Positions 53,698 to 58,636 are shown, counted from the first letter of the stretch. The stretch: 64,000 bases of DNA from an uncultured Acidobacteriota bacterium (GCA_937870635.1 CALMZP010000167.1:40917-104916); one strand, 5' to 3'. Notes: a model not told the origin generated them from the letters alone. Translations and numbers: made by a program.

Positions 53698-53800
53698 CTG
53701 TCATCCGGAGCGTGAGCGAGGGACCGGGGGGTTGGGTGGCACGAAGCACGATGTTTCGCGCCACCCGCCCCCCAGGTCCCTCGCTACGCTCGGGATGACA
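53698..53800. repeat. Long near-perfect hairpin (about 43-bp arms, 20-nt loop) 3' of both convergent genes
   Basis: cctgtcatccggagcgtgagcgagggaccggggggttgggtggc / loop acgaagcacgatgtttcgcg / ccacccgccccccaggtccctcgctacgctcgggatgacag. Confidence 0.8.
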
Positions 53801-53831
53801 GTGGAGCGCGGGCGACGTCGCCCGCGCTCCA
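53800..53831. repeat. Perfect 32-bp REP-like palindrome GTGGAGCGCGGGCGAC|GTCGCCCGCGCTCCAC
   Basis: This is the exact self-complementary sequence and serves as the archetype of the family. Confidence 0.9.
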
Positions 53832-53843
53832 CCCGTTCATCGT

Positions 53844-56315
53844 TCAATGTGCGTCCGTCTGCGCCGTGCCGATCCGCATCCCGTAGAACGACCGGTAGAC
53901 GAAGAACATCGAGATCAGCAGGAACACCGCGGACAGGAAGAGCGTCAGGCCGCCTTGTCCGGCGCGGTTCATCTCCACGGCCAGCTCCACTGCGAGCAGC
54001 CCGAACAGGGTCGTGAACTTGATGACCGGGTTCATCGCCACGGAGGAGGTGTCCTTGAACGGATCGCCAACCGTGTCGCCGACGACGACCGCAGCGTGCA
54101 GCGGCGTGCCCTTCATCTTCATCTCCGTCTCGACGATCTTCTTCGCGTTGTCCCACGCGCCGCCAGCATTGGCCATGAAGATCGCCTGATAGAGACCGAA
54201 AAGCGCGATGGAGATGAGGTATCCGATGAAGAAGAAGGGCTCGAAGCATGCGAACGCCAGGGTCGAAAAGAACACGACCATGAAGATGTTGAGCATGCCC
54301 TTCTGCGCGTAGCGGGTGCAGATCTCGACGACCTTCTTTGAGTCCTCGACAGAGGCCTTGGTGGCGCCCGTATCGAGCTTGATGTTCGCCTTGATGAATT
54401 CGACGGCGCGATAGGCGCCGGTGGAGACGGCCTGGGTGGCCGCGCCGGTGAACCAGTAGATCACCGCGCCGCCCACGACCAGTCCCAGAAGGAACTGCGG
54501 GTGCAGGAGCGAAAGCTTTTCGATGTCGGTGGTGAGTCCGTTCGTGAGCATCACGATGATCGCGAAGATCATCGTCGTCGCGCCGACGACGGCGGTGCCG
54601 ATGAGGACCGGCTTCGCAGTGGCCTTGAACGTATTTCCGGCGCCGTCGTTTTCCTCGAGGAACTCCTTGCCCTTCTCCCACGCGGGGGTGAACCCGAAGT
54701 CGCGCTGGATCTCTTCGTTGATTCCGGGAAGCGTCTCGATCGTGGAGAGCTCGTACACCGACTGGGCGTTGTCCGTGACGGGGCCGTAAGAGTCGACGGC
54801 GATCGTCACCGGGCCCATGCCCAGGAACCCGAAGGCCACGAGGCCGAACGCGAAGATTGCGGGGGCGATCATCAGAGCGCCCGCGCCAGTCGCGAAAGTT
54901 CCGGCGATCCACGCGGCGATGCCCATCAGGCCGGCGATCACCAGGCCCATCCAGTACGCCGAGAAGTTGCCGGCGATGAAGCCGGACAGGATGTTGAGCG
55001 ACGCGCCGCCTTCACGCGACGCCGTCACCACTTCGCGCACGTGGCGTGACTCGGTCGACGTGAACACCTTCACCAGCTCGGGGATGATCGCGCCGGCGAG
55101 CGTGCCGCAGGTGATGATCGTCGAGAGCTTCCACCACATCGAGGCATCGCCGCCGAGGGTGGGGATGAGAAGGTACGAGACGGCGTAGGTGACGCCGACG
55201 GAAAGAATCGAGGTCAGCCACACGAGCGACGTGAGCGGCGCTTCGAAGTTCATCTTGTCCGCGTTCAGGTAGCGCGCTCTGGCCATCGCTTCGTTGATGA
55301 AGTACGACACGGCCGAGGTGATGACCATCAGCACGCGCATCACGAAGATCCAGACGAGCAGCTGGACTTGTGCGGTCGGATCGGTGACGGCGAGGAGGAT
55401 GAACGTGATCAGCGCGACACCGGTCACGCCGTAAGTTTCGAAACCGTCCGCGGTAGGGCCGACGGAGTCGCCGGCGTTGTCGCCGACGCAGTCCGCGATG
55501 ACACCGGGATTGCGGGCGTCGTCTTCCTTGATGTTGAAGACGATCTTCATCAGGTCCGAGCCGATGTCGGCGATCTTGGTGAAGATGCCGCCGGCGATTC
55601 GCAGCGCGGCCGCGCCGAGCGATTCACCGATCGCGAAGCCGATGAAGACCGGCCCCGCGTATTCGCCCGGGACGAAGAGAAGGATCGCCAACATGATCAG
55701 CAGCTCGGTGGAGATGAGCAGCATGCCGATCGACATGCCAGCGCGAAGGGGAATCGAATAGGTGGGGAAGGGCTTGCCCTTCAGCGAAGCGAACGCGGTG
55801 CGCGAGTTCGCGAACGTGTTGATGCGGATGCCGAACCACGCCACGCCGTAGGAGCCGGCGATGCCCACGAGGCTGGCCAGGAGGATGATCACCACGCGCG
55901 CCGGCTCGAAGTCCCGGAGCACGCCGAAGTACACGACCATGATGATGCCGATGAGGAACTCGAGCATCAGGATGAACTTGCCCTGCGTGATCAGGTAGGT
56001 CTTGCAGGTCTCGTAAATCAGCTCGGAGATCTCGAGCATCGAGCGATGAACGGGCAGCGACTTGAGCTGGCTGTACATCATCACGCCGAAGAGCAGGCCG
56101 AGGACGCAGACCACCAGGCCGCCGAGGAGAAGGCGGTCGCCACTCACCCCGACGAAGTCGACGCTGCCGAGGTCCGGGAGCACCAGATCGGCCTCGGATT
56201 TGTGCTCGGTCGGCGTAGCGCGGCGCGTCTCGACCGCCTCCTGCGCCACGACCGCTCCCGTGGCCGTCAGTACCACCACCGCGAGCAACACCGCTCGCAT
56301 GATCCAGGACTTCAT
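53844..56315 (-). CDS. hppA: Membrane-bound proton/sodium-translocating pyrophosphatase, K+-independent subfamily (Lys in GNTFKAT)
   Basis: [13 protein letters not shown], DNVGDxAG-like motifs and 16 TM helices. Signal-like N-terminal extension. Strong ggagga RBS followed by an ATG at 56315. Confidence 0.9.
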
Positions 56316-56410
56316 TTTTCCTCCGAGCTGGGATGAGAGTTTTTTGTTCGAGTGCCGCATCCGGAGCAGGCCAGAGGCTGGGCTCACGCAAAAGGCCGGC
56401 GGATTCTAGC

Positions 56411-56526
56411 AGAGAGGGAGGGTCACGTCTGCACTTGGCACTTTCTCCACGAACGGTAGATCGGCGAAGTCGTGGGGAATCTACCGCTCGTGGAGAAAGT
56501 GCCAAGTGCAGACGTGACCCTCCTCC
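56411..56526. repeat. Long near-perfect hairpin (about 45-bp arms, 20-nt loop) in the divergent promoter region between the two PPase genes
   Basis: gagggagggtcacgtctgcacttggcactttctccacgaacggtagat / cggcgaagtcgtggggaatc / taccgctcgtggagaaagtgccaagtgcagacgtgaccctcctccc (one mismatch). Confidence 0.85.
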
Positions 56527-56566
56527 CAGTATCATGCGCGGCCAACCACCCCTGAGGAGACGACCG

Positions 56567-58636
56567 ATGTCGAACTCGATCTATCTGATTCCGCTGGCCG
56601 GGGTCCTCGCCCTGATCTTTGCCCTGGTCAGGAGTTCCTGGATCAGCAGGCAGGACGCCGGGACGCCCGAGATGAAAGTCATCGCCGGCCACATCCGCGA
56701 AGGGGCGATGGCATTCCTCACCCGCGAATATCGCGTCCTGGCGGTATTCGTCGTCGTGGTCTCGGTCCTCCTCGCCTGGGCGAACGCCGCGCGCGCCGAA
56801 AGCTCCTGGCTGATCGGCGTCTCCGTGGCCACCGGCGCGTTCTGCTCGGCCCTGGCCGGCTGGTTCGGAATGAGCGTGGCGACGCATGCAAACGTGCGCA
56901 CGGCGGCAGCCGCGCGGACCAGCATGAACGGCGCGCTGCGCCTCGCATTCGCCGGCGGCGCCGTGATGGGCTTTGCCGTCGTCGGCCTCGGACTACTCGG
57001 ACTGTCGCTTCTGTACATCCTCTACGAGCGCTTGTTCGCCTCCGCCGATCCGCAGGCGACGATGATCCGCAACATCAACGTGCTCTCCGGCTTCTCGTTC
57101 GGGGCGAGCTCCATCGCGCTCTTCGCGAGAGTCGGCGGCGGCATTTACACGAAGGCGGCCGACGTCGGCGCTGACCTCGTCGGCAAGCTCGAGGCGGGAA
57201 TCCCCGAAGACGATCCACGCAACCCGGCCGTCATCGCAGACAACGTCGGCGACAACGTCGGCGACGTCGCCGGCATGGGCGCCGATCTCTTCGAGTCCTA
57301 CGTCGGCTCCATCGTCGGCACCCTCGTCCTCGGCATGGTGGCGACGCAGGTTGGCGGTTCCAGCTATACACCGATGCTCGTGCTCTTTCCGCTCGTGCTC
57401 GCGGCGGTCGGCATCGTGCTCTCGCTCGTGGGTACGACTCTGGTCCGGATGAAAGAGGACGGTGATCCCGGCCGGGCGCTGCAGGCGGGCCCGATCGTCG
57501 CCGCCGTTCTGACTCTCATCGCCATCTGGTTCATCGCGCAGCGCATGCTGCCGGGGACCTACCTGCTCGAAGGGAGAGAGTTCAACGCCACGGGCGTCTT
57601 TTTCGCTACCGTCGCCGGACTCGTCGCCGGCGTCCTGATCGGACTGATCACCGAGTACTACACGTCCGAGGCGCGTGGTCCGGCGCGCGGGATCGCGCGG
57701 GACTCGCTGACGGGCGCGGCGACGAACATCATCAGCGGGCTGGCGGTAGGCATGAGGTCGACCGCGCTTCCGATCGTCGTCCTCGTCGTGGCGATCATCG
57801 TCTCGTATCGCCAGGCGGGCCTGTACGGGATCGCGATCGCCGCGCTGGGCATGTTGCTCACCACGGGAATCCAGCTCGCGGTCGATGCCTACGGCCCGAT
57901 CGCAGACAACGCCGGCGGCATCGCGGAGATGAGCCATCTCGGCAAGGAAGTGCGGGCACGGACGGACAAGCTCGACGCCGTCGGTAACACGACCGCCGCG
58001 ATCGGGAAAGGGTTCGCGATCGGGTCAGCGGCACTCACTGCGCTGGCGCTCTTCGCGGCCTTCAAGGCGACCGTCGGTCTGAAAGTGATCGACCTCAGCG
58101 ACCCCGATGTCATGGGAGGCCTCTTCCTTGGCGGCATGATGCCGTTCCTCTTCTCGGCGATGTCCATGAAGGCGGTGGGACGCGCGGCGTTCAAGATGAT
58201 CGAAGAGGTACGCCGCCAGTTCAAGGAAATACCCGGACTGATGGAGGGGACAGGGAAGGCCGACTACGCGCGTTGCGTCGACATCTCCACGCAGGCCGCG
58301 ATCAAGGAGATGGTCATCCCGGGATTGCTCGCCGTCGTCGCTCCGGTCGTGGTTGGCCTGTACAGCGTTCCTGCGCTCGGCGGTCTGCTGGCGGGCGTCA
58401 CTGTGACGGGCGTGCTGATGGCGATCTTCATGGCCAACGCCGGCGGCGCCTGGGACAACGCGAAGAAGCACATCGAGGCGGGAGCGCACGGCGGGAAGGG
58501 CTCCGATGCTCATCGTGCCGCGGTGGTCGGTGACACGGTCGGCGATCCGTTCAAGGACACATCCGGACCGAGCCTGAACATCCTCATCAAGCTGATGTCG
58601 GTGGTGGCGCTGATCGTGGCGCCGCTGCTGATTTAG
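56567..58636 (+). CDS. hppA: Membrane-bound pyrophosphatase, K+-dependent subfamily (Ala in [10 protein letters not shown])
   Basis: [24 protein letters not shown] and [21 protein letters not shown] motifs. GGAGA RBS followed by an ATG at 56567. Confidence 0.9.

Follow-up and report, generated by a model that had tools for sequence, protein, structure and literature searches.

A head-to-head pair of divergent membrane pyrophosphatase genes bordered by mobile palindromic repeats in an uncultured Acidobacteriota bacterium

We analysed a stretch of 64,000 nucleotides (nt) from an uncultured Acidobacteriota bacterium (GCA_937870635.1 CALMZP010000167.1:40917-104916; hereafter the window, in which all positions without another label are counted), and in particular two membrane pyrophosphatase (PPase) genes, PP1 and PP2, which lie on opposite strands on either side of a short spacer and are bordered by long hairpins. 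The explanation that we favour, with good if not full confidence, is that this is a vertically inherited locus in which two functionally different ion pumps are encoded head to head, and that the hairpins are copies of mobile palindromic repeats. Enzymes of both classes have been described before, as have repeats of this type, and the locus opens no long-standing question. What is particular to it is the head-to-head adjacency, present in one subclade of Thermoanaerobaculia, and the swap of element types between sister genomes, which specialists will find unsurprising.

PP1 is encoded at 53844-56315 on the minus strand (open reading frame of 823 amino acids, with GGAGG at 56320-56324 before the ATG) and PP2 at 56567-58636 on the plus strand (689 amino acids, with GAGGAG at 56554-56559 before the ATG), the distance from start to start being 251 nt. 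Both proteins cover positions 1-644/645 of the PF03030 (H_PPase) profile, with 615 bits for PP1 and 928 bits for PP2 at a gathering cut-off of 29.7 bits, and they are 28% identical to each other (BLASTP). An earlier note on this DNA had described them as divergently transcribed paralogs of different subfamilies, told apart by a Lys in PP1 and an Ala in PP2 at the same motif position. This description holds in all its parts: both genes are full-length members of PF03030, BLASTP sets the two motifs opposite each other without any misalignment, and the difference in subfamily is borne out by Lys12.46 versus Ala12.46, by the low identity and by the match to separate NCBIfam equivalogs. The G+C content at the locus is 62-65%, comparable to the surroundings and unremarkable.

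PP1 scores 1423.7 bits with NCBIfam NF001950 (PRK00733.1-1, an equivalog of divergent membrane PPases of ~807 amino acids; curated cut-off 826 bits), over profile positions 17-805 of 807, while PP2 reaches only 239 bits with this profile. Its scores with the solved enzymes are 209 bits (Pyrobaculum), 176 (Vigna) and 141 (Thermotoga). When PP1 is aligned with the K+-independent enzyme of Pyrobaculum, PaPPase (PDB 8b37), its Lys falls on Lys12.46 of GNTTKATTKG and the Glu of its ADGFETY stretch falls on Glu6.53; across 80 species-level genomes and 240 proteins from databases, the Lys motif and ADGFETY show little or no variation. The signature of the K+-independent family couples A12.46K to G/A12.49T (PMC10897367), and position 12.49 of PP1 is occupied by Ala (Ser in three of 80 relatives), not by the canonical Thr. 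Because Thr12.49 is missing, PP1 would stand outside the canonical K+-independent family, and its Ala12.49 argues for an independent lineage that carries the Lys. Lys12.46, Glu6.53 and deep divergence from the canonical subfamilies, all present in PP1, are traits of the evolutionarily divergent Na+(K+)-regulated H+-PPases reportedly described by Luoto et al. 2015 (Biochem J 467:281), with the type enzyme from Chlorobium limicola. Enzymes of the C. limicola type are tabulated as K+-independent H+ pumps with Glu 6.53 that are inhibited by Na+ and K+ (PMC6882861 Table 1), and have been termed a 'highly diverged subfamily' that is Na+- and K+-regulated (PMC8469034). PP1 most likely belongs to this clade of Na+/K+-regulated H+ pumps typified by C. 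limicola and, by homology to the enzymes in the literature, would pump H+ without requiring K+ and be inhibited by Na+ and K+.

PP2 is, judged from its sequence, a canonical membrane pyrophosphatase of the K+-dependent type. It scores 1076 bits with NCBIfam NF001955 (cut-off 1059), and 603, 555 and 465 bits with the solved enzymes of Vigna, Thermotoga and Pyrobaculum, respectively. Its Ala motif (Ala12.46, Gly12.49) is identical to that of the Vigna enzyme (4a01), and the alignment with the latter sets, within the PP2 stretch DLFESYVG, a Glu opposite G297 (6.53) and a Gly opposite E301 (6.57). This signature is conserved in 120 homologs. The set of Ala12.46, Gly12.49, Glu 6.53 and no Glu 6.57 is that of K+-dependent Na+-PPases, though it is not fully diagnostic, and PMC10897367 (Table 1) gives the combination of the first three for Na+ and for Na+,H+ pumps. 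Because the gate Glu sits at 6.53, PP2 probably translocates Na+ and, following the literature, would need K+; its ion specificity is not proven by sequence.

The PP1 protein is longer than PP2 at both ends. According to hydropathy, its N-terminus has a signal-like helix (amino acids 5-23, ...VVA/QE) followed by ~40 residues ahead of helix 1, and its C-terminus an additional hydrophobic helix (amino acids 788-806), whereas PP2 stops at helix 16. The N-terminal extension had been singled out as unusual, which was not the case: the family alignment shows both extensions to be conserved, and they lie inside the NF001950 profile (N-terminal consensus MKSWIxRALLLA...AQE), i.e., they are traits of the family and no peculiarity of this copy. 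The family itself is widespread and unusually conserved, with 72-86% identity, more than 600 genomic matches and essentially two full-length clusters when clustered at 50%. Its hosts include Acidobacteriota, Myxococcota (Sorangium, Archangium), Gemmatimonadota, Planctomycetota, Methylomirabilota, Ignavibacteria, Zixibacteria and others. The closest proteins are encoded by metagenome-assembled genomes (MAGs) of Thermoanaerobaculia.

The history of the locus can be followed in related genomes (labelled here by L or P and a number). The sister genome GCA_035699425.1 (L006) is colinear with positions 47975-64000 of the window (16 kb) at about 92% DNA identity (range 87-94%), and its PP1 and PP2 proteins are 99.0% and 99.6% identical to those of the window. 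The identities of PP1 and PP2 rank alike (99/99.6, 91/84 and 85/78%). The head-to-head pair is found in the same neighbourhood in L006, L007, L008/L009 and in contigs of P0001, P0002 and P0122, in the order nuo operon, Methyltransf_28, two OmpA-like genes, PP2, PP1, and, further on, DUF4920. Other relatives have PP1 in the conserved neighbourhood without PP2 (L001 and L002/L003; L002 corresponds to L007 minus PP2, with a GAF gene pair directly adjoining PP1), or lack PP2 beside PP1 and have largely different neighbours (L004 and L005). Overall, PP1 occupies a conserved syntenic slot in more than ten related genomes and PP2 is the variably present gene. In a neighbour-joining tree of PP1, which broadly follows taxonomy within the class, genomes with and without the pair are interspersed, and for this reason the pair is probably ancestral to the subclade, with repeated losses of PP2. 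These patterns suggest that the locus is vertically inherited within Thermoanaerobaculia (Acidobacteriota) and that PP1 is its stable resident.

Elsewhere in Thermoanaerobaculia the canonical pump lies in a prs-rplY-pth-[hppA]-rpsF-rpsR-rplI cluster, and these copies group apart from the pair-associated ones (in a tree without bootstrapping that places L008 at the same distance from the two groups). Two examples, L091:6001-8076 and L092:6001-8073, encode the canonical K+-dependent PPase between pth and rpsF, in housekeeping surroundings that are unusual for an ion pump. Outside the subclade, a canonical pump is next to PP1 in two of 80 PP1-bearing species genomes, both times in tandem. In a Blastocatellia MAG (L040:3773-8466) it is immediately upstream of the PP1-type gene, on the same strand, with a gap of 47 nt; in another Acidobacteriota MAG (L018:4913-9682) the order is the same and the canonical copy is apparently frameshifted, possibly by long-read errors. 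This tandem form is an independent, operon-like second architecture of the pairing and, if the roles proposed for the two enzymes hold, would lend mild genomic support to their functional coupling.

Long hairpins surround both genes. The earlier note had reported two perfect hairpins of roughly 115 bp around PP1; both exist, but only one of them is near-perfect. This element (56417-56523, core 56418-56522) lies between the two -10-like boxes of the PP1-PP2 spacer. Its arms (56417-56461 and 56479-56523) are 45 nt long and 98% complementary, with a loop of 17 nt, and it folds as DNA with -57.8 kcal/mol (z = -14). The other hairpin (53698-53801), in the convergent 3' gap between an amidohydrolase gene and PP1, has the termini CTGTCATCCGGAGCG...CGCTCGGGATGACAG and is imperfect, with a 34-nt core at 85% and ~46 pairs interrupted by bulges. 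It passes without a gap into a palindrome of the repetitive extragenic palindromic (REP) type, GTGGAGCGCGGGCGACGTCGCCCGCGCTCCAC, at 53801-53832, 11 nt past the stop codon of PP1; as had been claimed, this 32-mer is perfect (16+16). Folded together, the two reach -71.9 kcal/mol (z = -12). Half of a variant REP (GGTGGAGTGCGGCAGCAA) is present at 53676-53693, and the full palindrome, GGAGTGCGGCAGCAACTGCCGCACTCC, is found at the homologous position of L006.

PP2 is bracketed as well. A third palindromic element, absent from the earlier note, fills the convergent gap between PP2 and an OmpA-like gene (58685-58790, TTTATCCTGAGGAGCGAAGCGACGAAGGATCTCC ... GGAGATCCTTCGCTTCGCTCAGGATAAA; -54.3 kcal/mol, z = -11) and belongs to the same terminal-motif family as the 53698 element. 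The terminal inverted repeats of these two, (G/T)T(C/T)ATCCnGAG(G)AGCG..AGCGA..GGA(T/C)C, also occur in elements of L005, L006, L007, L022 and L066; a literature search on the terminal motif GTCATCC...GGATC found no papers. Close to the third element, a 14-mer is present in three direct copies (TTTATCCTGAAGAG / TTCATCCTGAGGAG / TTTATCCTGAGGAG; 58644-58698) with a spacing of ~21 nt. Of these, the last forms the element's left terminus and the two extra ones are at 58644-58678, as if the terminus had been reiterated. Because there are ~16 such hairpin loci in the 64-kb window, many of which exactly fill convergent gene ends, bracketing by hairpins is the local norm. None of the hairpins has a T-run after a G+C-rich stem, and none of the four terminator-like hits of a consensus scan coincides with them. 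Rfam 15, including the Na+ and Li+ riboswitches, gave no match at gathering score over the window, and at E<=1 over the locus only sub-threshold miRNA-precursor models, which fit any long hairpin.

The hairpins are also the places where sister genomes differ. In the alignment of the window with L006, the only breaks are the three hairpin regions: 53694-53847 is opposed to 27 nt that contain only the simple palindrome GGAGTGCGGCAGCAACTGCCGCACTCC, 56418-56526 to 252 nt of unrelated sequence, and 58635-58802 to 131 nt of unrelated REP-like sequence. A second copy of 56418-56522 is located 5 kb away in L006 (L006:3495-3599), where it separates two unrelated convergent genes. The arms of this copy match those of the window at 97.7% identity, with one compensatory pair (G>T, C>A), and its loop is largely different. 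The homologous site in the window (51472-51589) has a hairpin of ACGCRGAG repeats related to the one in the PP1-PP2 spacer of L006. The GGGTCACG palindrome and the ACGCRGAG-repeat hairpin are thus exchanged between sites (window 51472-51589 versus L006:3489-3613 and L006:8665-8916), and the genes between these sites, 5 kb apart, are not inverted.

An element at a non-homologous site and the differences between the window and L006 at all three sites are the marks of palindromic mobile elements or miniature inverted-repeat transposable elements (MITEs). The suspicion that the hairpins are repeated and mobile was well founded, given the 56418 element at another site of L006 and the dispersal of the terminal-motif family. 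The long hairpins and the REP 32-mer are best read as members of several families of selfish, palindromic repeats, which colonise the gaps between genes in this lineage and turn over rapidly there. No flanking direct repeats (target-site duplication) are visible at the ends of the three elements, and the 53698 site holds another palindrome in L006. A scan of metagenomes with a 20-mer from the arm of 56417, which spanned a base that differs in the L006 copy, gave one chance match, in an unrelated low-GC contig (L090). An origin of the palindrome from the ancestral spacer, through inverted duplication in place, was also considered and rejected, as an alignment of the spacers of the window, L006, L007 and L008 revealed no convincing homology.

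The PP1-PP2 spacer measures about 220, 251, 355 and 393 nt in four close strains, and only two -10-like boxes, which flank the palindrome in the window, are conserved within it. The predicted box of PP1, TGCTAGAAT on the minus strand (56403-56411), resembles an extended -10 element 88 nt upstream of the ATG. The sequence GCTA(G/C)AATCCGCGCGCC is present 66-99 nt upstream of the PP1 ATG in the window, L001, L002, L004-L007 and L010-L014. It is the only conserved upstream feature: beyond it every genome differs, often by tandem 7-8-mers or hairpins. The predicted box of PP2, TATCAT on the plus strand (56530-56535), is 31 nt upstream of the ATG, and TATCATGCGC or TATGATGCGC (TATGAT in L007) is conserved at least 31 nt before the PP2 ATG in the window, L006, L007 and L008. 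The palindrome is 9 and 7 nt from the two boxes, at the expected -35 positions and upstream of both putative transcription starts; L007 and L008 have ~60 nt of ordinary, non-palindromic sequence in its place. The proposal of a shared, structured control region did not survive this comparison, as the palindrome is missing from the spacer of L006 and of every other relative examined. Each gene appears to have its own promoter, and the palindrome does not look like a conserved shared regulator; it may have a strain-specific modulatory effect. Among the leaders of PP1, those of the orthologs in L004 (L004:9900-10000), L007, L010, L014 and L001 have, downstream of the -10 box and ahead of the ribosome-binding site, a motif, CAGCCACGGGAGAG, within a GACCC...GGGTC stem. 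The leaders of the window (56316-56400) and L006 differ from this type, and RNAalifold on a MAFFT alignment of nine PP1 leaders gave no consensus structure.

Several observations weigh against a pair of functionally different pumps with separate promoters. The assignment of PP1 relies on shared signatures and on a literature that has only one such divergent clade, and PP1 carries Ala instead of Thr at 12.49. Adjacency of the paralogs outside the subclade is as rare as two in 80 species genomes, so that co-location is not required for function. At the spacer, a sigma-70 consensus scan gave no significant promoter and nothing above chance, and the boxes are predicted from conservation. Lastly, K+-dependent H+ pumps of the Carboxydothermus type also have Glu6.53 (PMC6882861 Table 1), which makes H+ a possible ion for PP2. 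Both enzymes would then be H+ pumps, PP2 being of the type of C. hydrogenoformans, and the only differences left between them would be K+ dependence and regulation by Na+. The generic NCBIfam names of the two enzymes fit this alternative too. However, the tabulated combination of Ala12.46, Gly12.49 and Glu6.53 in PP2 is the one given for Na+ and Na+,H+ pumps, and PP2 has no Glu at 6.57. We consider two H+ pumps unlikely, at a level that still deserves attention.

The other alternatives concern the hairpins. The palindrome with 45-bp arms could be a dedicated regulatory structure common to the two divergent promoters (an operator, a cruciform switch powered by divergent transcription, or an RNA attenuator), coordinating the expression of the H+ and Na+ pumps. 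Its place at the would-be -35 regions of two conserved -10-like boxes suits this role, as do arms that are conserved and compensated between both known copies while the loop drifts, and the fact that L006 and L004, too, have a hairpin of some kind upstream of the -10 box of PP1. Such a regulator is nevertheless very improbable: the element is missing from the L006 spacer despite at least 99% protein identity of both pumps, the ~60 nt at its place in L007/L008 are unrelated to it, the same element lies in L006 between unrelated convergent genes, no Rfam family covers it, and the sole promoter-like hit in it is no more than chance would give. The earlier note had also seen the hairpins as MITE termini that mark the K+-independent copy as mobilised or acquired, i.e., PP1 would be a horizontally acquired cassette moved in one piece by the hairpins on its two flanks. 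Hairpins do flank PP1 on both sides, and the identity of 72-86% across very distant phyla hints at some lateral spread in deep time. Yet the two flanking elements belong to unrelated families and are no pair of like termini, PP1 stays in place in L006 without either hairpin at these sites, its slot is the same in more than ten related genomes while PP2 is present or absent, its G+C content is that of the surroundings and its tree within the class is broadly taxonomic. This leaves the cassette with hardly any probability. Finally, the window resembles MAG sequence, and assemblers can create palindromes; however, an assembly made independently, GCA_035699425.1, has the same 105-nt element with point differences, among them a compensated pair, the repeat families recur across many independent assemblies, and intact genes lie to either side of the elements, which are internal. 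An assembly artefact has next to no chance of being the explanation.

We thus return to the vertically inherited pair of different pumps with mobile palindromic repeats around it. Under this explanation, PP1 would be a K+-independent H+ pump inhibited by Na+ and K+, and PP2 a K+-dependent pump, most likely of Na+. A rise in cytoplasmic Na+ would throttle the H+ pump and leave the energy of pyrophosphate (PPi) to Na+ extrusion, as the literature on the C. limicola enzyme suggests. C. limicola itself reportedly also has a separate Na+-PPase, which would be a precedent for both kinds of pump in one genome, and the authors of the study of its divergent enzyme are said to have proposed that the two pumps cooperate. 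PP1 would be transcribed from a promoter at TGCTAGAAT with a leader of ~85 nt and PP2 from one at TATCAT with a leader of ~25 nt, the sequence between the two boxes being free to vary. The palindrome in the spacer would most likely be neutral or only modulatory. The elements at the 3' ends would, by analogy with REPs, probably act as bidirectional terminators or stabilisers of 3' ends, and their mobility might come from a hairpin-recognising, duplication-free transposition of the REP/RAYT or IS200/IS605 type.

A bolder version can be built on this, in which the locus is a 'PPi energy router': a Na+-inhibited H+ pump beside a Na+ pump, 2 kb from the complex I operon, with a spacer that is a preferred landing site for palindromes. 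These would replace both -35 regions and re-tune pump expression between strains, possibly via cruciform extrusion under the negative supercoiling caused by divergent transcription. We think this version improbable. If the roles proposed for the enzymes hold, the locus is a compact natural case of partnership between a Na+-regulated H+-PPase and a Na+-PPase, in an uncultured soil lineage and around one shared intergenic region, and a convenient gene pair to clone and test together. The hairpins, for their part, provide a clean small case of how palindromic elements turn over from one sister genome to the other, some of them being translated in frame within genes.

The REP family of the 32-mer, GGAGCGCGGGCGAnnTCGCCCGCGCTCC, has at least eight related copies in the window; those other than 53801-53832 are at 14210, 25304, 29978, 45623, 45673, 60606 and 62547. 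The REPs at 14210-14298, 25296-25377, 29978-30004 and 45617-45697 are often arranged as inverted pairs in convergent gaps, like bacterial interspersed mosaic elements (BIMEs). Two REP regions are translated. A REP-derived insertion of 36 nt (60599-60639) is in frame within the Methyltransf_28 gene (~60361-61467, plus strand) and adds 12 residues relative to L006 (...SLYDAVGARAISPATEMAGEIARPPRF... in the window versus ...SLYGSAGEIARAPRF... in L006); the adjoining half-REP is coding in both. A REP pair at 62498-62572 (region 62497-62592) is translated in the low-complexity linker of a NuoB-like fusion protein, where L006 has a different in-frame stretch of 108 nt; the homolog in L008 has 701 amino acids and a much longer linker.

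Intergenic hairpins whose arms consist of tandem 7-nt units are also common. They are built, for example, of (GATTTTG)n/(CAAAATC)n at three loci, of (TTGGACC)n or of (ACGGTTA)n, one having arms of 63 nt, and are found at 1938-2004, 34550-34614, 41274-41369, 13609-13694, 26444-26533, 11965-12064, 63926-63985 and 21479-21625. Other units occupy homologous places in L002, L004, L013 and L014. These hairpins are reminiscent of the cyanobacterial STRR sequences, here in palindromic form. Next to the 53698 element, the amidohydrolase gene (52103-53674) is intact and encodes 523 amino acids, whereas no gene is called in the homologous region of L006 (L006:4460-6069; 89% identity, four gaps). The L006 counterpart is possibly a pseudogene, and the slot is taken by different genes in other relatives.

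Both pumps and repeats have counterparts among known systems. PP1 is like the divergent H+-PPases of Luoto et al. 2015 in its Lys12.46, its gate Glu 6.53 and its distance from every canonical subfamily, which shows in the 141-209 bits to the three solved enzymes (465-603 for PP2). It differs in that its partner gene is adjacent and divergent, which is the case in one Thermoanaerobaculia subclade only. The canonical K+-independent H+-PPases (PaPPase 8b37, AVP2 type) share Lys 12.46 and Glu 6.53 with PP1, but PP1 breaks the coupling of A12.46K with G/A12.49T by its Ala12.49, reaches only 209 bits with PaPPase, and has the additional signal-like N-terminal helix and a 17th helix at the C-terminus. 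PP2 is like the Thermotoga maritima enzyme (TmPPase, PDB 4av3) and the Na+,H+-PPases in having Ala12.46, Gly12.49 and Glu 6.53 and no Glu 6.57; it differs in scoring slightly higher with the Vigna H+-PPase (603 bits) than with TmPPase (555 bits).

The hairpins resemble REPs and BIMEs and the palindromic MITEs, i.e., the REPs of E. coli, the Correia elements of Neisseria, the SMAG repeats of Stenotrophomonas, and the cyanobacterial Nezha elements and heptamer STRR. Like these, they are short to ~110 nt, palindromic, intergenic and multi-copy, vary in presence and site between close strains and often occur at convergent 3' ends. In contrast to the named families, to which their sequences are unrelated, several unrelated families occur here together, some with arms of tandem 7-8-mers, and the element types at two sites 5 kb apart are swapped between two sister genomes.

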